This document shows positions 39,474 through 54,533 of a stretch of 64,000 nucleotides of DNA, in pieces. The notes under the pieces were generated by a model. It saw only the letters and a program-made list of their open reading frames with translations. It was not told the origin of the DNA and made no database searches. Position 1 is the first letter of the stretch, and the number at the start of each line of letters is the position of its first letter. The translations under genes and the position numbers were made by a program. Where the stretch lies: the NCBI RefSeq assembly GCF_988243305.1, contig NZ_OZ547136.1. One strand, 5' to 3'.

Positions 39474-40544
39474 TTATTTAATCCGGGCCATCGCGCTTCT
39501 CAGTGCCAAATCTGCCTCTTCCGTTATCTCCAGACTTTTCTGCAACACCGTTTCTGACCGGGACAGTGCCTGACGTGCTGCCAGCGGTTTCCGGATATGC
39601 TCCATCGTCAGCATCGTGTCCTCGTAGCCCTGCTGACGCCAGGCGTCGGTATGTGCCGACGTGAAACTGAGCAGACCGCCACTGTTGCCACCATCACCTG
39701 CATATTTCAGCCTTTTCCGGGGACGGATCTCAAGGATTGTGGTGTCCGGAAAAGCCTGGCGATCCCATAAAGAACCGTCACTCAGATGCGACACAATCAC
39801 CATATTGCATCCGGCATCGACCAGAGGCGTTACAGGGGTATTTCCCTGCATATTTCGCCATCCTCCCATACCACCATCACCGAACATTGTCCCCTGAACC
39901 TCACGGGGACGGAACAACAGGGGCAGTGCGGCTGACGCAAGCAGAGCCTCTTTCTGCTGTCCGCGGGGCAGACTCTGGATATGCTGAAAAACGGCGTTTT
40001 TCGTGGTTCCGGAACCCAGTTCAGCACGAATGCAGTCAATAATATCCTGCATGCCCCCTTCTGTGGGGTACAGCGACACATACAGCGGTAGCCCGTCTGC
40101 CAGAGCATCTGTATCAAGATAATGATCCATCAGCGCTGTCAGGGGCCCATCTGACAACAACGGCTGAGTCATCGGATTGTCGAAGCCGTTGATTATCGAT
40201 ATATGGCGAAGAAGTGTCGTAAGCAGTGCTCCTGCACGTCCGGGGATCTGGCAGAGGTTCATTGCCTGGAACAATTTTTTCAGCAATGAAAAGTAAACCG
40301 ATCGGTTTACCGACAGCACCTGATTATTCCCAAGATGATCCCAGAGCGCCTCCAGGCGTACGGCAGCTTCTGACAGATCGGGAGAGGCCGCGATAATGGC
40401 ACCATTGAATGCGCCAATGCTGGCCCCTGAAACCATGCTGATCTGTGTACCACACTCTGCCAGTGCCTTAACCACTCCCGCCTGATAAGCGCCCACCGCC
40501 CCACCGCCGGACAGCACCAGCCCTGTTTTTATTTCTATACTCAT
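39474..40544 (-). CDS. Patatin-like phospholipase
   Basis: 356 aa; oxyanion motif SGGGAVGAYQAG, nucleophile GASIG (GxSxG), catalytic Asp in FGDGG; ATG overlaps stop of upstream gene (ATGA). Confidence 0.85.
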   Translation of the reverse strand: MSIEIKTGLVLSGGGAVGAYQAGVVKALAECGTQISMVSGASIGAFNGAIIAASPDLSEAAVRLEALWDHLGNNQVLSVNRSVYFSLLKKLFQAMNLCQIPGRAGALLTTLLRHISIINGFDNPMTQPLLSDGPLTALMDHYLDTDALADGLPLYVSLYPTEGGMQDIIDCIRAELGSGTTKNAVFQHIQSLPRGQQKEALLASAALPLLFRPREVQGTMFGDGGMGGWRNMQGNTPVTPLVDAGCNMVIVSHLSDGSLWDRQAFPDTTILEIRPRKRLKYAGDGGNSGGLLSFTSAHTDAWRQQGYEDTMLTMEHIRKPLAARQALSRSETVLQKSLEITEEADLALRSAMARIK

Positions 40545-41446
40545 GCAGCCCCCTTCTGAAATATTTCATCGACCATACTTTCAGAGAGGCGTTCTGCAGA
40601 GCAGAGACGGGGCATGCGAACCGGTAAGTGTTCTGCAGCCTGCGTGGTTGACCAGATCACCGGATGCTGCTCTTCACTGCACCAGTCCCCCAGCCAGTTA
40701 ATCGCGTCATGCCACTCGTTATCTGCCTGCTCCCGGCCCTGACCACCAAGCCAGTCCAGAGTGTTCAGACGCACGGTTGCACTACCGCCACTCTCCTGTG
40801 CCATCTGCGTTAATGCTTTATGTCTGAGAATATCCAGTAGCTGGTTAACCTGGCCTGTTTCGCCCTGACGTATCACATCACCAAACGCGCCCCAGCGAAG
40901 CTCTTCAAGTGCCACATAACAACGTCCGGCAGGGGAAAATGACGCATATCGCCCGGCGCTCCACCAGGAGAATATCTGCTCAAGATGTAACTGCGCCCGC
41001 TGAACCAGGTCAACACGGTGGAGTTTTTCTTCAAGATGATTCAGTTTCTGGTGAACCTGATCGGCCAGGGTGAGTAACTGCTCCCGCGTATCTGCGGAAT
41101 AATGCGCCAGCCTGGCAGTATCACTGACCAGTGAACTGACCCTGTCGTTTACCCGGGTAATCGCGTAGTTTGTGGTGGCAAGTGACGTTGTCAGCTCCGT
41201 CAGCCAGCGCAGGGACGCCTCAACGCCCTGTGCAAGCGAAGCATTGATGGCATTCTGCCGTGCAGCACCTTCGCCGCTCAGCCCCTCTTTTAACCGCCGG
41301 AAGAACGTGCGCTCTCCGGCCGTACGGATATGCTCCTGTGCAACATCAATACCGTTTGCGAAATCAACCACAAATTTTTCAGGAAGACAGGTGAGTACCT
41401 GACATACCCGGTTATCAGCAATTTGTTGAATAAATGGTGAAGTCAC
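40541..41446 (-). CDS. YjcZ-like protein (partner of dynamin-like GTPase)
   Basis: 301-aa ORF; GTG start overlaps dynamin stop; family call from memory of chromosomal crfC-yjcZ pair. Confidence 0.65.
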   Translation of the reverse strand: MTSPFIQQIADNRVCQVLTCLPEKFVVDFANGIDVAQEHIRTAGERTFFRRLKEGLSGEGAARQNAINASLAQGVEASLRWLTELTTSLATTNYAITRVNDRVSSLVSDTARLAHYSADTREQLLTLADQVHQKLNHLEEKLHRVDLVQRAQLHLEQIFSWWSAGRYASFSPAGRCYVALEELRWGAFGDVIRQGETGQVNQLLDILRHKALTQMAQESGGSATVRLNTLDWLGGQGREQADNEWHDAINWLGDWCSEEQHPVIWSTTQAAEHLPVRMPRLCSAERLSESMVDEIFQKGAA

Positions 41447-43827
41447 AGCATTGTCTCCAGTTCTTCCCTTAACGCCTTACTGTCAGTAATGAGCTCAGGA
41501 ACCCTTTCATTTAACGCCTGAAGACGCCCGGTCAGCCGTTCCTGCGCCTGCTGATCGCGTTTATGATCTTCAGAGCTCTGAATCAGCGTGTTACGCAGCT
41601 GTTCAACTTTCTCCCTGAATGTACAGAAAAAGGCATCGATTTCCTGGCGGACGGGCTGGTTAATATCCTGCTCAATGGATGCCTGCAGCTCCCCGAAATA
41701 TGCCCGGGTCAGTGACATCACTTCCTCTCTGACCTTGTTGATATTGATCACGCTGCGGCTCACATCCACACTGTACTCTTTCCAGCCCCAGTCACTGGTG
41801 TTTGCCCATCGACAAAGCGTACCCCAGACACCATCCTGTCGACAGCGACGGGTTACTGTCTCCGTTCTTTCCTCCATAAGCGCGCTCAGATTTGTTTTTA
41901 CTGCGAGCCGGGTCTGTAACTGGCTGACTGCCGGAAAACTGATTTTTACAGTGAAACCTTCATCCTCCAGACGGGCATTGATGCGTCCGGCAATATTTTC
42001 TGTGGCGTACAGGGCCGTACCACGAAAACCTGTTTCAATACCCCTGACGATTTTTTCCAGTTCAGGACGGAACTGTGCTTCAGCCTCACGGTGCAGGCTG
42101 GTCACGGTCGATTCGATTTGCGTCATCAGTTCAAGGGCTTCCCTGCGATCACTGAATTTTATTTCGGGGCTGTCCGGATCAAAGTCCCGCATCCTGTCAT
42201 GCTGATTTCCGGTTCCGAAAATATCGTGAAAGAAAGCGAATGCGTTTCTCTCCCGGGGCTGCGCTGAATTTTCTTCCTCCAGCATTTGCTGTTCTTTGCG
42301 TTTACCGCTTCTGAAATAGTCATTCAGCTCCTCTTCCAGTGAGGTGCAGACCCCCGTCAGTAATTCCCGGGTTCTGGCATCGATCTCCTCCATGGCCATT
42401 CTGACATCAGCGGTCACCTGCTCCTGACAGTCCGCGATTTCCCGGATATCCGCAAGCAGGCTGGTGATATGCGACTGCAGTGACTGAATGCTTTGCTGTA
42501 GCCCCTGATGGCGTAATGACAGATATTCGCTGACATTTTCCGCATTCTGCATCAGTTTTGCGGCGGCAGAATCAACCGCCAGTGCCGCCGCTCTGGAATG
42601 GGAGCTCTGTATGACTTCCGTTATCAGTTGATCGATAAGTGAGCCTTCCCACAGGTCTGTCGCCCCTTCGGTTGCCATTTCACTGTCTTTACAGACGTAT
42701 TCTTTTTTCATGCGACCGAAGGCTTCCCTGACAAAATCATCGACCCAGGCTTCATCAACAGGAAGGGTTCTGTTTTTCCGTAACTCATGAAGCGCACGGT
42801 TAGCCAGGTACGCCTGACGTGATGAGCCTGGATAAACGCGGGAGGCGGGCAGCACATCGCTGTTCAGCATTGCCGGAACTTTCTGGCGTACGGCATCTGC
42901 CCCATCGCCATTGCGGTCTTTCTCATCAAATTTATTGACCAGCACAAACAGGCGGCCAGCTGATACGTCAGCAATGGCATTAAGCTCTTTACGGACGTCT
43001 TCATCCGCTTTTGAGTTCATCTGGGTGTAATCCATCACCGCCAGCACCGCAGAGGCTTTCTGCAGTTGATCCCGCATCATCACTTCCATCTGCGGTTGTC
43101 CGGCCTCATTAGGGCCGGGGGTATCCAGCAGTGTGAGTGTTCCCTGGCATGGATCCATCCCCACCAGATGGCTGAATTCCACGTCGATCACCGGCAGTTT
43201 CTGCACTTCTGCGTATTCATCAAAAGGAAACTCACTCCCCATTGCCGCAGCAAGGCGAACCAGATCGTTTAACGATGCCAGTCCGGTAAAAATTTCCTCC
43301 TCCCCGTGGTATTCATTTTTGAGCCAGCCATCATTTGCCAGAATATCCAGCAGTTCGCAGGTATCCCCGGTTTGCTGCAGGGTCTGTGCGACTTGCTGTC
43401 CTGCCGGGGTGTCGAGTTTTTGTTTCAGTGTGCTTAATAAATTGCGGACGGGCTGAATATGTTCCAGATGGAGGACCGGCTCAGTTTTTCCGGGAACGTG
43501 GCGGATGAGCGTCGGTACAGAGGTCATGGGGCGGTTACGGTTAGGCAGAATTTCCTGCCCCACAATGGCGTTGATGGTGGTTGATTTACCTGCTTTCATC
43601 GTGCCGACAACAGCCAGCACCATCTCCCTGCGGGCGGTTTTGATTTGTTCGCCCTCCAGCTCCTCAATTCTTTTCAGTGCTTTCTGTTTATCAAAAAGCA
43701 GTCTGTTTTCGTTCTTACTGTCAGATAACACATCCGGCTCATCAACCATTTGCCGGAGCAGATTAATGTTCAGTTGCAAAAGTCGGTCGGCTTCATCACA
43801 AAGCAGGGCGATGTTCTTTTCGTGCAT
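41443..43827 (-). CDS. Bacterial dynamin-like GTPase (CrfC/YjdA- and LeoA-like)
   Basis: 794 aa; G1 GTMKAGKST, G3 DTPGPNE, G4 NKFD; long helical C-terminal region; RBS AGGAAGG upstream of ATG 43827. Confidence 0.85.
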   Translation of the reverse strand: MHEKNIALLCDEADRLLQLNINLLRQMVDEPDVLSDSKNENRLLFDKQKALKRIEELEGEQIKTARREMVLAVVGTMKAGKSTTINAIVGQEILPNRNRPMTSVPTLIRHVPGKTEPVLHLEHIQPVRNLLSTLKQKLDTPAGQQVAQTLQQTGDTCELLDILANDGWLKNEYHGEEEIFTGLASLNDLVRLAAAMGSEFPFDEYAEVQKLPVIDVEFSHLVGMDPCQGTLTLLDTPGPNEAGQPQMEVMMRDQLQKASAVLAVMDYTQMNSKADEDVRKELNAIADVSAGRLFVLVNKFDEKDRNGDGADAVRQKVPAMLNSDVLPASRVYPGSSRQAYLANRALHELRKNRTLPVDEAWVDDFVREAFGRMKKEYVCKDSEMATEGATDLWEGSLIDQLITEVIQSSHSRAAALAVDSAAAKLMQNAENVSEYLSLRHQGLQQSIQSLQSHITSLLADIREIADCQEQVTADVRMAMEEIDARTRELLTGVCTSLEEELNDYFRSGKRKEQQMLEEENSAQPRERNAFAFFHDIFGTGNQHDRMRDFDPDSPEIKFSDRREALELMTQIESTVTSLHREAEAQFRPELEKIVRGIETGFRGTALYATENIAGRINARLEDEGFTVKISFPAVSQLQTRLAVKTNLSALMEERTETVTRRCRQDGVWGTLCRWANTSDWGWKEYSVDVSRSVININKVREEVMSLTRAYFGELQASIEQDINQPVRQEIDAFFCTFREKVEQLRNTLIQSSEDHKRDQQAQERLTGRLQALNERVPELITDSKALREELETML

Positions 43828-45901: not shown

Positions 45902-47101
45902 CCCCTTTCTCCGGTTGCTTAAAAATTAAACACAACAAGGTGATAATAACATGATAAAAAGAAGTTTATAATGGTATATTAAGGTGGTCAATAAAAAGGC
46001 AATCTGCGCACTGTATAGTCATTATGACAGGAAATGCAGGAGGAAGGGAAGGTAACCGGCTTCGTTATGCTGACAGGAATACCTGTTATCATGGAAGTGC
46101 ATTCATGTGGCCGACGTAGCTTAAGAGGATGGAAGAGTGGAGACTGCAGACAGGGGGTATTGAAAGGTAAACATGTTTCGCCCGCCAGCTGCACCGGAGG
46201 CCAGCATCACTTTTTTTACGTTGTAACCTGGTATGCATTCCGGCTTTGATGATTACAGTCAGAGGGCAGCAGACTGACGTTATTTAACCGGACAGCAAAA
46301 TTATGGACACTGAAATATCGTCCGTTAATACCTCGTTTGTCGGTGTGGTATTCCCTGTATTACCGGCGTCACCGATAAAGAGAGTTATAAACGCCAGAAA
46401 GGTACCTGCTTTATGCCGGGGAACACTTATGGAAAATGAAGTCTGAAAAGGAGCACAATGAAAAGAGACGTGTCCCGTAAATATAACGAATCATCGCAGG
46501 ATATGCATTATCAGGTGATACCAGAGTGCATTAAACTGCCGTCACGGATAAGAATATACAACATTTCTGATAACAAAACATCATAACGTGTTTCAGATAT
46601 GTTCCGGCATCAGTCTGACGGATATTATTTCCCGGGAAAACAAACCTGCTACTGTGACGGTTAACTGTATCTGCATAAATTATTTATGATGAAAGAACAG
46701 TATTACGGATTCAAATATCATCCTGTTTGCATTCAGGCGGACATTCCCGGATGCCGAAAAGAATATCCTGCAGGCTGAGTGAGTCTCTTCCACAGTGCCG
46801 GGATCGCTGTCGCCACGTACATATTGTCACCAGGATGGGTATGTACCGCAGCATGCCATTTCTGGTGAATAACCGCACCTGCACATTCAGTCTGCTGAGA
46901 ACCTGGCGTGCATCGGGCTGTAAAGAACATCCCTGTCCGTGGCTCCTCTGGTGGTGTTGCCTGCTCAGTAATGACAGGATGCCCTTAAGACGCCCGTCAT
47001 GGCTCAGTATGATGACGACGAACACGCTCTGCAGGTGAGCATGCGGGGCCGGGAGCATCATCATTTCCGTATTTTGTCACACCTTCCGGAAGCAACCGGC
47101 A

Positions 47102-47719
47102 TCAGTTGCGGTTATCGTCAACCGTTGTGCGGTATGCCAGGAGCACGTACTGATCCATCAGATCCGTCAGTGCTGCGCTCTGCCTCTGACGGTTGATGAT
47201 CCATTCCTCCAGCTCTTTTTCTGATTTCCGTTTCAGGTTCTCTTTCCAGTCTTCAAGGCTGTTTCCGGTCATTAAATCAAGCCAGCAAAGCCAGACCAGT
47301 TTGAGGCGCAACTCCGTGCCACCAAACTGACGGAAGAGGCTAATCAGTTTATTTGCCAGAGAACGCTGCCTCAGACGTTCACATTCAGACAGGAGAATGC
47401 CTTCCAGCATCGGATGATGAACCAGCAGATGTTCACTGGTGCATAAATTCACTATCAGATCATCATCCAGGGGCGGCGTGGCCCGTTTGTCAGGGCCATA
47501 AATCAGCCGGTGCAGGCTCTGGGGTACGATGGCAATCTCCGGTTTTTCACCATTGAATGACACCCACCCGGGCGTCAGATTATGGAAGTAGTAGATATTC
47601 GGATGACACACGCCCCAGGATACGGCGTGCCGGGTGAAGCCGGTCAGCCATTTCTGGTAGCTTTCGTGGAGCAGTTCGTAACGGGTCTGATACTGTTGTT
47701 TCATTTTCATATTCCTCAC
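47102..47719 (-). CDS. Hypothetical protein (205 aa) downstream of alpA-like gene
   Basis: Uninterrupted ORF; no family recognised from sequence alone. Confidence 0.6.
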   Translation of the reverse strand: MRNMKMKQQYQTRYELLHESYQKWLTGFTRHAVSWGVCHPNIYYFHNLTPGWVSFNGEKPEIAIVPQSLHRLIYGPDKRATPPLDDDLIVNLCTSEHLLVHHPMLEGILLSECERLRQRSLANKLISLFRQFGGTELRLKLVWLCWLDLMTGNSLEDWKENLKRKSEKELEEWIINRQRQSAALTDLMDQYVLLAYRTTVDDNRN

Positions 47720-47798
47720 GGGGATATAACAGGCAGCAGAATGCCGCCGGCAGGCCGGGGATTACGTCTGCTGCGGGTGAACGGATAACGGTCAGAAA

Positions 47799-48005
47799 TT
47801 ACGGACGGGACTGTGCAATACGCGCCTGCAGCCAGGCTTCCACTTCACTTTTCAGCCATCGGGAACTGCGGCCCAGCTTGATGGGGGCCGGAAAGGCCCC
47901 ATCCCTGATGAGTTTGTAAAACCACTTATCGGTCAGGCCAGTCAGTTGAGTGATAAACGCCATGTCGACCATCTGGTCATCCATCAGTGAAACTGGGGTG
48001 GTCAT
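47799..48005 (-). CDS. AlpA-family prophage transcriptional regulator (excisionase-like HTH)
   Basis: 68-aa form from ATG 48005 after RBS GGAGG; MTTPVSLMDDQMVDMAFITQLTGLTDKWFYKLIRDGAFPAPIKLGRSSRWLKSEVEAWL. Confidence 0.8.
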   Translation of the reverse strand: MTTPVSLMDDQMVDMAFITQLTGLTDKWFYKLIRDGAFPAPIKLGRSSRWLKSEVEAWLQARIAQSRP

Positions 48006-48911
48006 GAGAATGTTCCTCCGGATGTTGTTAATCTCAACCGGCGTTGGTGATGAAAACAACGCACCACCTTCACCGGCATAACAACCGGGGAGAAACGTAA
48101 AAAATAATCGGGAATGTGACCGCCAGGAGATAAACGGGGGGATTGCGGTGGCTGAGCCGTACCGGTATGTCGGGTGGTTGTTGCGAAACGATGCTTCCGC
48201 ACGCGATAAAGGAGGGAGGACTTTCGTGAGACAAGGGGAAAACTAGCGTTCTGATAATTGCAGAGTTGTTTTTGAAGGCGGTTGTGGTATATCAGCCTGT
48301 GACCTGTGGGCAGGCGACAGTTATCACTGGTGGGATAATACTGTCTGATTGGTATTATAAATATATAAGAGAGATCAAACACATGAGATCAAACACATGA
48401 GTTCATATATGTGAAATAAATCTGTGAGTGTGATCAGCAGACCAGTCTACCCAGTAGCAACAGATTGCGTTGTACTCACAGGGTTATCCCTGATAACTGG
48501 CGTATAACCTGCGTACATAAAACGTACCTGCAATGCACCTGAACAGAGTGCATTAAGCATCCGCCTGAGCGGTAAACGTATCCGATCTGGTGAGTGACAG
48601 TCTGAGAGCATTCTCAGTAATCGCCCCCTTGTATCCTGGAAATTGGTTAAGATAACAGCGATTAGATTTGGCAAGGTGTATGCAGCCAGCAGCTTAACAT
48701 CTCAGCTAACTGGCTGGTTACCTTCAGGTTGTCGCAATGGCATCGGACATCCGGTGTCGGATAACTAAACGTAGCGTTAAGGCGATATTGCTGAGAGACC
48801 GGTTAAGTGGTTGCACGGGAGTAATGAGTTTGGGGAGGGCACCAGAATGCCAGGTTGGTGCGGTATGCTGACAGCATCCTGTTAACCGCAGCATAAAGTA
48901 ATGAGAGGCTA

Positions 48912-49124
48912 ATGGAAGTTAAAACCAAAGAAGACTGGCTGTATCAGCTCCGTCGTTGTTCATCCCGGGAGACACTGGAAAAAGTGATTTCCCACACACG
49001 TTATAAACTTACCCCTGCGGAGCTGGAAGCCTTCAACTCTGCGGTCGATCACCGGCTGGCAGAACTGACAATGAACAAGCTTTACGATCGCGTGCCGGCT
49101 TCAGTCTGGAAATATGTCATCTGA
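48912..49124 (+). CDS. Small hypothetical protein (70 aa)
   Basis: ORF with upstream GAGAGG; no family recognised. Confidence 0.4.
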
Positions 49125-49756
49125 GCGTTCGGTAATCACAACGGCATCGCGCCAGGTGTTATCCGCTTTGTGATTCTTATTGGCTCTTCTCAGGTTATTA
49201 AAAGCTGAATATGTTCCTGTTGTCGGGAACCAGGATAATGTCGGGAACGTTAAGCTGTATAACGACAACAAAGAATTCGAAATCAAAAGGGAATGGTGTA
49301 CGGAGGTGTGGACGGTAATGGGCCGATTTTCGGGCATTACCGACCTCTGCTGAGGTTTTCTCGTATTTCTGGGGATCCGGTGAGTTACTGTCACTGTCTG
49401 GCACAGCAAGCGCAGAGGCGGCGGGGCGCTTTGCTCCGCTGATTCCGGATAATTCCTCCCCTGTAACCTACCGCAACAGTACAAATACACTGACGCCTGA
49501 AACGACAGCCAGAATCAGCACAAGCCACAATCCCTGCACACCGTTTTGCGTATCACCATAACGCCTCCTCACAGCCTTACCCGTAACCGGTTTTTTACAT
49601 TAAAAAAACAACGCTGGGAATTCAATCGTCAGTCCGGAGACGACAGTCGGGTTATCACAGAGTGCCTGAGACAGTGTCCTGCCGGAGGTCACCTCAGGGA
49701 CTCTGCACATTTTTTACAGCGTGGCTATTCCGTATGAACCATACGGAGATTTAACC

Positions 49757-50326
49757 ATGACCTACAAATACAACCCCTTCTGGCAGCAACGTATTCGTGA
49801 GACGGTGCGGCACGCACTGAATGTTCATCCCCGCCTGACGGCATTGCGGGTTGACCTGCGTCTCCCGGATGTACCGGCAGCAACGGACGCAGCTGTGATA
49901 TCCCGCTTCATCAATGCCCTGAAAGCCCGAATCGACGCTTACCAGAAACGTAAGCATCGGGAAGGTAAACGCGTGCATCCCACAACCCTGCATTACGTCT
50001 GGGCCCGGGAGTTTGGGGAGTGCAAAGGTAAAAAACACTATCACCTGCTGCTGCTGGTCAACCGGGATACCTGGTGTCGTGCCGGTGATTACCGCGCTCC
50101 GGGGTCACTGGCCGGGATGATTAAACAGGCCTGGTGCAGTGCCCTGGGAGTGGATGCCGGACGTTATGACACGCTGGCACATTTTCCGGTCAGGCCGGCG
50201 GTGTGGCTGGAACGCGATGATGACACCGGCTTTCAGCAGGTGCTGGAGCGTGCTGACTATCTGGCGAAGGAGAGTACCAAAGCTTACGGCACCGGTGAGC
50301 GCAACTTTGGCTGCAGTCGTGGCTGA
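49757..50326 (+). CDS. YagK/YfjJ-family (inovirus Gp2-like) protein
   Basis: ATG 49757 after RBS GGAGAT (MTYKYNPFWQQRIRETVRHALN...); family typical of CP4-like islands. Confidence 0.7.
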   Translation: MTYKYNPFWQQRIRETVRHALNVHPRLTALRVDLRLPDVPAATDAAVISRFINALKARIDAYQKRKHREGKRVHPTTLHYVWAREFGECKGKKHYHLLLLVNRDTWCRAGDYRAPGSLAGMIKQAWCSALGVDAGRYDTLAHFPVRPAVWLERDDDTGFQQVLERADYLAKESTKAYGTGERNFGCSRG

Positions 50327-50491
50327 GCCCGACAGACGACTTATCTGACTTCAGTGTGATGACGTGTTCACAGCGACCACACTGATTTTCCCTTCTGAGA
50401 CTGAACTGAAAACCGCCATTCACACCTGACCACGCTGCCCGTACCGGGACGGCTGTTGCCTGCGTGTCGTCTGGCGGTAAGGAACCACACT

Positions 50492-50911
50492 ATGTACGCA
50501 AAATCTTTTCTCGCACTTGATGGCAACGGACGTCTGACCGGTGCCCGTACCGCACAGACCGCACCTTATGCTTACTACACCTGCCACCTTTGCGGCAGTG
50601 CACTCAGATACCACCCGCAGCACGACACGGAACGTCCCTGGTTTGAACACACTGACGACGGGCTGACGGAGCACGCGCAGCAATGTCCTTATGTCAGGCC
50701 GGAACGCAGAGAAATACGGTTGATTAAACGTCTGCAGCAATTCGTCCCGGATGCCTTACCCGTGGTACGTAAAGCCAGCTGGTACTGCAGGCAATGTCAC
50801 CACGATTATTATGGGGAGCAGTACTGCACACACTGCCAGACCGGGCGCTTCAGTGAGGACGGGGAGCAGAATGAACGGTATAAAAACGGGGCTGGGGATC
50901 ACGCCGGGTGA
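50492..50911 (+). CDS. Cys/His-rich zinc-ribbon protein, first half of a tandem pair (second half 50871..51179 in another frame)
   Basis: ATG 50492 after RBS AAGGAA; CHLCGSALRYH...WFEHTD repeated as CLSCHGRLIL...WFEHDL in the downstream frame; C-terminus runs into the IS66 end. Confidence 0.55.
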   Translation: MYAKSFLALDGNGRLTGARTAQTAPYAYYTCHLCGSALRYHPQHDTERPWFEHTDDGLTEHAQQCPYVRPERREIRLIKRLQQFVPDALPVVRKASWYCRQCHHDYYGEQYCTHCQTGRFSEDGEQNERYKNGAGDHAG

Positions 50912-51094
50912 GCACATTATCAGTGCCGACTCTGCGCTCAGCAGAAATATCCGGCATTGTTTCTGCCTTTCCTGTCATGGCCGGTTGATTCTGCAGACAG
51001 ATGCTCAGGGGGCGTGGTTTGAGCACGATTTACATGCCCTGAGTGAGCAACAGAAGGGTAAGCGTGCAGCAAGAACCGTATTGACGGGGATGTG

Positions 51095-54111: not shown

Positions 54112-54533
54112 CGCCCCCTCCCGGTCAGTTCACGGATCAACACCGTGAGCAGCTCTGGTGAAGGATTTTCCAGCGTCATGTTACCGTGGCGGAACTCAAC
54201 TTTACAGGAACTGGCACTGACTGTGCTTTGTGAAGGAGTGGATAAAAGCGGAGTAAGAGCCGCCATAGGCTCTTTCTGCTCATCAGGCGTTATCTCAACA
54301 GGTAATAATTCAACGCCAGCGTCAGAAGAGGTTGTTACCGGAAGACGCCGCGATATACGCCCTTCGTTCTGCCAGAGCCTGAGCCATTTGAACAGGAGGT
54401 TATCATTGATATCGTGTTCCCTGGCAATACGGGCAACAGAGGCTCCTGGTTGCAAAGCCAGTTTAACCATTTGAAGTTTAAACTCATTTGAAAATGTTCT
54501 GCGGGGTTCTGCGGATAATATTTTCTGTTCCAT
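54108..54533 (-). CDS. IS66 accessory protein TnpA (Orf1)
   Basis: 141 aa; HTH region; 4-nt overlap with tnpB. Confidence 0.85.
   Translation of the reverse strand: MEQKILSAEPRRTFSNEFKLQMVKLALQPGASVARIAREHDINDNLLFKWLRLWQNEGRISRRLPVTTSSDAGVELLPVEITPDEQKEPMAALTPLLSTPSQSTVSASSCKVEFRHGNMTLENPSPELLTVLIRELTGRGR

Follow-up and report, generated by a model that had tools for sequence, protein, structure and literature searches.

The window (the whole stretch of 64,000 nucleotides that we analyzed) contains an alpA-like gene and, divergent from it, a gene of the hha2/hha3 type, and between the two lies a short array of a 14-bp direct repeat (Table 1). The array is 366 bp upstream of the ATG of the alpA-like gene (position 48005, minus strand), much as in a preliminary description made from the sequence alone, which had put the distance at about 370 bp. 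On the other side, the array is 511 bp from the hha gene.

Table 1. Features around the 14-bp repeat, with positions in the window
Feature	Position	Strand	Remarks
alpA-like gene, 68 aa	47799-48005	minus	Pfam Phage_AlpA (E = 7.8e-9) and HTH_17
Conserved non-coding stretch upstream of alpA	48006-48365	minus	80-99% in both island classes; its right end borders the array, and similarity falls there
AT-rich core between alpA and hha	48345-48421		Array bracketed by imperfect inverted arms, rich in A/T, at 48353-48366 and 48405-48418
Perfect TATAAT on the alpA strand	48354-48359	minus	Adjoins the array; no acceptable -35
Repeat unit 1, GAGATCAAACACAT	48371-48384		GATC at 48373-48376
Repeat unit 2, same as unit 1	48385-48398		GATC at 48387-48390
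Partial third unit, GAG	48399-48401		In alleles with a single unit, this 3-nt microhomology is present on both sides of it
Degenerate partner (76%) of 48357-48377	48416-48436		Ends in the third GATC (48432-48435)
hha2/hha3-type gene of the Hha family, 70 aa	48912-49124	plus	Pfam HHA (E = 5e-28); intact in the window
Gp2-family (YagK/YfjJ) gene	49721-50326		1.3 kb from the array; Pfam YagK_YfjJ_C, weak REP_ORF2-G2P

Relatives of this island in RefSeq share a gene order: a YeeP-like GTPase, a YfjI-family protein (in some), a hypothetical protein, an AlpA-type HTH regulator, hha, a small hypothetical protein, an "inovirus Gp2 family" (YagK/YfjJ) protein, and zinc-ribbon proteins. Islands with this gene order also hold CbtA/CbeA, an antirestriction protein, and a JAB/RadC-like protein. 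Among the annotated neighbors in the related records, we saw neither an att site nor an integrase gene. Elsewhere in the island, at 39474-43827 on the minus strand, there is an operon for a patatin-like phospholipase, an RdcB-family protein, and a dynamin-family GTPase, which looks like a defense-type cargo module. (RefSeq gives these names for the closest relative; Pfam was run on the 794-aa ORF alone and gave Dynamin_N.)

Extra paralogs of hha, known as hha2 and hha3, have been described in pathogenic E. coli (PMC4864382), and the hha gene of the window appears to be their counterpart. In strain 042, a duplicated island region that includes hha2 is reported to be repressed by H-NS/Hha (PMC6480617), which by analogy would fit an AT-rich, silenced control region at our locus. 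Neither of these papers contains a promoter or intergenic analysis of the alpA/hha locus. Across related islands, the two divergent genes have fared differently. An intact alpA-like gene was found at 96 of 103 related loci, while only 21 of 116 relatives have a full-length single tblastn match to the Hha of the window (from query residue 2 or earlier to residue 69 or later, with no stop or gap). Most of the other relatives have matches that begin only at residue 5 or 12, which may reflect N-terminal variation or truncation, and in several RefSeq records hha is flagged as a pseudogene or as frameshifted. Because hha is full length in a minority of relatives and is often flagged as broken, while alpA is usually intact, constraint seems to be relaxed on the hha side, which is the array's side. 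The number of repeat units in a relative showed no association with whether its hha gene is intact.

Between alpA and hha, GC content is lowest at the array (0.27-0.30 at 48320-48409, versus about 0.5 in the surroundings). A consensus scan for sigma-70 promoters, with -35 and -10 hexamers spaced by 16-18 bp, found none in 47700-49200. There is a TTGATC within the unit, and it is only 13 bp from the TATAAT on the minus strand, which is too close for a -35. If that TATAAT serves as a -10, then the units would be at about -24 to -51.

The non-coding stretch of about 360 bp between the array and alpA is as conserved as the coding sequence of alpA and is common to two classes of islands. In its minimum free energy fold, GUUUCUCC pairs with the Shine-Dalgarno sequence of alpA, GGAGGAAC, with a z-score of only -1.37. 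It is possible that this predicted pairing would sequester the start of alpA from translation.

The repeat and its spread

The exact periodic stretch runs from 48371 to 48401 and consists of GAGATCAAACACAT twice and then GAG, with a period of 14. Tandem Repeats Finder (TRF) extends it slightly, to 48371-48405 (period 14, 2.5 copies, 95% matches, score 63). The preliminary description had reported a 16-mer, GAGATCAAACACATGA, in tandem. Both copies of this 16-mer are indeed present (48371-48386 and 48385-48400), but the second shares its first 2 nt with the end of the first, and the unit is therefore 14 nt long. The same description placed the motif in a region with no ORF, which is right in substance, as only mechanical ORFs overlap the repeat (48266-48400 on the plus strand and 48002-48382 on the minus strand).

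The array is the sole exact tandem duplication with a period of 7-60 in the window, and none of 200 first-order Markov simulations of 64 kb gave even one such duplication. The repeat is real and beyond chance; it proves that a duplication occurred, but not that it has a function. The unit does not recur in the window beyond chance: if we allow up to three mismatches, there are 8 matches (5.75 expected), and a relaxed core of the unit was not enriched either. At a score of at least 50, a TRF scan of the window found one other array, which is weaker (period 17, 2.1 copies, 11% indels, score 52) and lies in an IS66-family region at 54460-54492.

Both the array and its surroundings are very common in E. 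coli. The 852-bp intergenic region has matches in 3,599 of 5,426 complete E. coli genomes, at a median of two places per genome, and a 110-bp segment centered on the array has matches in 2,116 of them. Absence of the repeat from every related island would have spoken against the preliminary description; instead, conservation of the unit is wide, as more than 2,000 of the 5,426 genomes have it. That description had also suggested islands of the CP4-57 type for comparison. The alpA of CP4-57 in E. coli K-12 is built differently, with only 43 bp between it and yfjH, so it is not a relevant comparator.

Beyond E. coli, we found little. An anchored repeat pattern had no matches in 100,044 species-representative genomes, and a conserved 20-mer from the alpA leader had one match in the same genomes, in a 512-bp contig with 0.8x coverage. 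This contig (NZ_JAHZMO010000129.1, our locus L009) is from an assembly of Terrisporobacter petrolearius and is presumably contamination from E. coli. The phage collection had no match. Plasmids carry a few copies of the island, almost all from E. coli and one in a record from Klebsiella pneumoniae, as well as an unrelated element of about 65 bp. Judging from these sequence searches, the element looks essentially confined to E. coli in the collections that we searched.

The unrelated element is part of a segment of about 189 bp (48602-48790) that is bounded by a 7-bp direct repeat, CTGAGAG; only about 31% of related alleles contain this segment. The segment is single copy in each genome, so it is not a proliferating MITE. 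The sub-segment of about 65 bp (about 48620-48690) is found on Shigella pINV and on E. coli F-type plasmids, with 81-95% identity, and also by itself in many other E. coli chromosomes, at about 88%.

Matches to the intergenic region fall into coverage classes that stop at query position 306 or 360 (position 48365 of the window), just to the left of the array. A second class of islands (L005, L006, L139, and the plasmid locus L138) keeps the stretch upstream of alpA through ...GGTATTATAAATATA. Beyond GGTATTATAAATATA, these islands can be aligned to the window only in patches, and they have no array at this position. Because the similarity between the two classes ends directly to the left of the array, we consider the array to be part of the hha-side module, where it abuts a mosaic junction. 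The 11-mer CAAATACATGA is common to the unit and to the upstream region of the second class, where it lies about 125 bp further out. A multiple alignment does not pair it with the array, so we treat it as uninformative.

The two classes can share proteins. The same AlpA protein (WP_000632607.1) is encoded beside regions that have the array (L004 and L007) and beside one that lacks it (L005), and the same Gp2-like protein (WP_000221530.1) is encoded in L014, which has the array, and in L138, which does not. Because identical proteins occur with and without the array, neither the AlpA nor the Gp2-like protein is likely to have its cognate site there.

Variation in copy number

We read the alleles of the array at 15 loci from genomes and at 120 places in metagenomes. 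Related islands have one, two, about 2.6, or three copies, and the units of an array have often diverged from each other: besides the unit of the window, we saw GAGATCAAATACAT, GAGCTCAAACTCAT, and GAGAGCAAACACAT. Two units is the most frequent state in the metagenomes (72 of 120 places). The commonest two-unit allele is GAGATCAAACACAT GAGATCAAATACAT, at 48 places, and the two identical units of the window were seen at six. A single unit was found at 42 of the 120 places (35%), of which 28 have GAGCTCAAACACAT, which lacks GATC. Three diverged units, GAGATCAAATACAT GAGCTCAAACTCAT GAGATCAAACACAT, were found at two places, and four places have two units and a partial unit of 9 nt (hence about 2.6 copies), which can be explained as a three-unit array that is missing 5 nt. 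Among records from complete genomes, 95 match the allele of the window at 99% identity or above, 339 match a one-copy allele (L003), and 56 match a three-copy allele (L010). For these counts, the queries were segments of 96-124 bp around the array (110 bp for the allele of the window). Chromosomal matches of any identity numbered roughly 3,000 for the query from the window and 4,400 for the other two.

The GATC within the unit has been destroyed by several different changes (GAGCTC, GAGAGC, GAGACC, and a 5-nt deletion) in the arrays of L010, L012, L013, L004, and L011. In every three-unit-like allele that we saw, the middle unit has no GATC. One flank haplotype was split 4:4 between GATC and GAGC and was otherwise uniform.

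Single-copy alleles read GAG-ATCAAACACAT-GAG, so a short direct repeat brackets the unit. Tandem copies beyond chance, polymorphism in copy number, and bracketing microhomology are what is expected of a variable-number tandem repeat (VNTR) that arose by slippage, and the array has all three. If the array were as mutable as a typical VNTR, then we would also expect to see different copy numbers in near-identical backgrounds. We did not see this in 13 flank haplotypes, each defined by 400 bp to the left and 200 bp to the right of the array and each seen 2-17 times: within each of them, copy number was uniform. Because copy number never differed between identical flanks, we conclude that the array is an old and stable polymorphism and is not hypermutable. 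On the other hand, copy number varies within both types of flank, and therefore it has changed more than once.

What the array could be

What would such an array do? One possibility is that the units bind a nucleoid-associated protein or a regulator of the island (H-NS/Hha, something like IHF, or another factor) at divergent promoters for alpA and hha2, so that copy number would tune the expression of alpA and hence the excision or regulation of the island. The location is suggestive: the array sits in an AT-rich trough beside a perfect TATAAT on the alpA strand, and a degenerate partner with its own GATC lies 45-59 bp away, which is reminiscent of operators with multiple sites. Also, the two-copy state is both common and old, and H-NS/Hha repression has been reported for the duplicated region of 042 with its hha2 (PMC6480617). 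But the scan for canonical promoters came up empty, the motif is not found beyond chance elsewhere in the 64 kb, and 35% of the sampled alleles have just one unit. The sharing of identical AlpA and Gp2-like proteins with array-less upstream regions also counts against it. As for IHF, the consensus WATCAANNNNTTR has no match within one mismatch at 48371-48401 (each unit has two mismatches), and in the window as a whole it matches at the chance rate (60 matches versus 57 expected). Overall, we doubt that the units are binding sites of this kind, although this is the main rival of our preferred explanation and a possibility that we take seriously.

AlpA itself is one candidate for such a factor. 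Excisionases and other RDF-type winged-helix proteins use direct-repeat sites (for example, X1-X1.5-X2 of lambda Xis, and the sites of TorI), and as with those sites and the AlpA sites of Pseudomonas, we have tandem direct repeats near a gene of the AlpA/Xis family. The units would also overlap the -35 region of a promoter that has no -35, as do loading sites of the Q/AlpA type. In Pseudomonas, however, the element that AlpA binds is GGGACGN5GGTA, between the -35 and -10 of the target promoter (PMC7969949). This box is absent from our array and there is no resemblance to it, and the AlpA-like protein is also found beside regions without an array.

A more specific and more speculative idea is that the unit is the operator of a factor from the island or the host at an activator-dependent alpA promoter that lacks a -35 (or at the divergent hha2 promoter), and that the alleles with one, two, and three copies are heritable "set-points" for the excision or silencing of the island in different lineages of E. 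coli. Precedents for tuning by repeats exist. Promoter-proximal tracts, such as the TAAA repeats of nadA in Neisseria or the TA repeats of hif in Haemophilus, tune expression via spacing or the binding of regulators. Like them, the array is directly upstream of a -10-like element in a divergent promoter region, and a change in copy number would alter the spacing. Those tracts differ in that they have short units in many copies and switch frequently, while our unit is 14 bp, has at most three copies, and shows no sign of rapid switching. We consider set-points to be improbable. A more general role, as AT-rich DNA that is bound by H-NS/Hha or another factor at an activator-dependent alpA promoter, is conceivable.

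It seems very unlikely that the GATC sites at 48373, 48387, and 48432 form an epigenetic switch for alpA or hha2 that depends on methylation by Dam. Well-known switches of this type include agn43 (with OxyR), pap (with Lrp), gtr, and opvAB, and the same family of islands often carries flu (agn43), which is controlled by Dam and OxyR (PMC6480617). As in those systems, there is a cluster of GATC sites (three within 63 bp of the window) in the upstream regulatory region of a horizontally acquired element. Nevertheless, in contrast to them, the GATC of the unit is poorly conserved and is often mutated to GAGCTC, GAGAGC, or GAGACC or lost in 5-nt deletions. Of the 42 one-copy alleles, 28 have GAGCTC and thus an array without GATC. 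The three units of L012 all lack it too, and the only GATC in the core there is downstream of the array. Furthermore, we did not recognize an OxyR- or Lrp-like context, and the spacing of 14 bp is out of helical phase.

Slightly less plausible still is that the units are iteron-like origin sites at which the YagK/YfjJ ("inovirus Gp2 family") protein of the island would act after excision. A gene of this family is nearby, and there are direct copies and a degenerate copy in an AT-rich setting. However, iterons come as three or more phased repeats, typically of 17-22 bp, while the array has one to three units of 14 bp and is down to one unit in 35% of alleles. The match to REP_ORF2-G2P is below the Pfam cut-off (25.0 versus 27.8 bits), the array does not covary with the Gp2-like protein (WP_000221530.1 occurs with it in L014 and without it in L138), and we know of no replication function for the YagK/YfjJ family.

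Least likely of all, and largely refuted, is that the repeat belongs to a coding sequence or to a structured or regulatory RNA: mechanical ORFs do overlap it, and the one on the minus strand ends in an ATGA overlap with the start of alpA, but a period of 14 is not a multiple of 3 and shifts the reading frame, the minus-strand frame of 126 codons from the array to alpA has no Pfam match and is cut short in about half of the relatives (to 21-94 codons, versus 128-141 in the others), Rfam had no match in 46000-51000 at E ≤ 1, and the folding z-scores of the array region on its two strands (+0.16 and -1.24), of the 345 nt from the TATAAT to alpA, and of the 512 nt on the hha side are not significant (+0.16 to -1.37).

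An old duplication and what it means

Our preferred explanation, with a probability of roughly 0.6, is that the array is an old tandem duplication, derived by slippage, and that it persists as a stable polymorphism of one to three units in an AT-rich control region, on an island that is very common in E. coli. Most likely, a single-copy ancestor of the form GAG-ATCAAACACAT-GAG was duplicated by slipped-strand mispairing or by unequal exchange between the two GAGs. The array lies in the AT-rich core of a putative divergent control region for the alpA-like gene and the hha2/hha3-type gene. We infer that the array has no dedicated sequence-specific function and is either neutral or weakly modulating. 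At most, the gain or loss of 14 bp (about 1.3 helical turns) would change how much AT-rich DNA precedes the putative -10 of alpA, and also the spacing there, and this could mildly shift silencing of the H-NS/Hha type or the strength of a promoter.

The preliminary description had offered two readings of the repeat. A recombination remnant is borne out in a broad sense, given the one to three copies, the bracketing GAGs, and the adjacent junction. The other, a site for a regulator, is less probable: the specific candidates that we tested (IHF, a Dam switch, an AlpA box of the Pseudomonas type, and a cognate site of AlpA or of the Gp2-like protein) all failed or were weakened.

There are three arguments against neutrality. 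First, two copies is the majority state, and it has been kept for long enough that the units have diverged; weak selection for two units predicts the same thing. Second, the array is at the one intergenic spot where promoters and operators are expected, in an AT-rich trough next to a TATAAT. Third, the degenerate copy with a GATC, 45-59 bp away, recalls operators with multiple sites.

As a slippage-derived duplication, the array is an ordinary case of a familiar kind of feature, though this particular case is undescribed. It resembles the intergenic VNTRs or minisatellites of enterobacteria that are used in MLVA: these also have non-coding units of 10-20 bp arranged head to tail, with copy numbers that vary between strains and an origin that slippage between short flanking direct repeats can explain. 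The array differs from VNTRs of the MLVA type in having just one to three diverged copies, in being far more stable, and in being on a mobile island that is present in multiple copies instead of at a single core locus.

If the array is only a product of slippage, then it would be useful as a stable indel marker for typing the alleles of a very common family of E. coli islands. It is also a landmark between a conserved module that contains alpA and a variable module on the hha side. In other elements, proteins of the AlpA family drive excision or antitermination. If the units do bind a regulator, then the array would be a control point for alpA, and its alleles would be a natural series for studying how islands that are silenced by H-NS/Hha are switched on.
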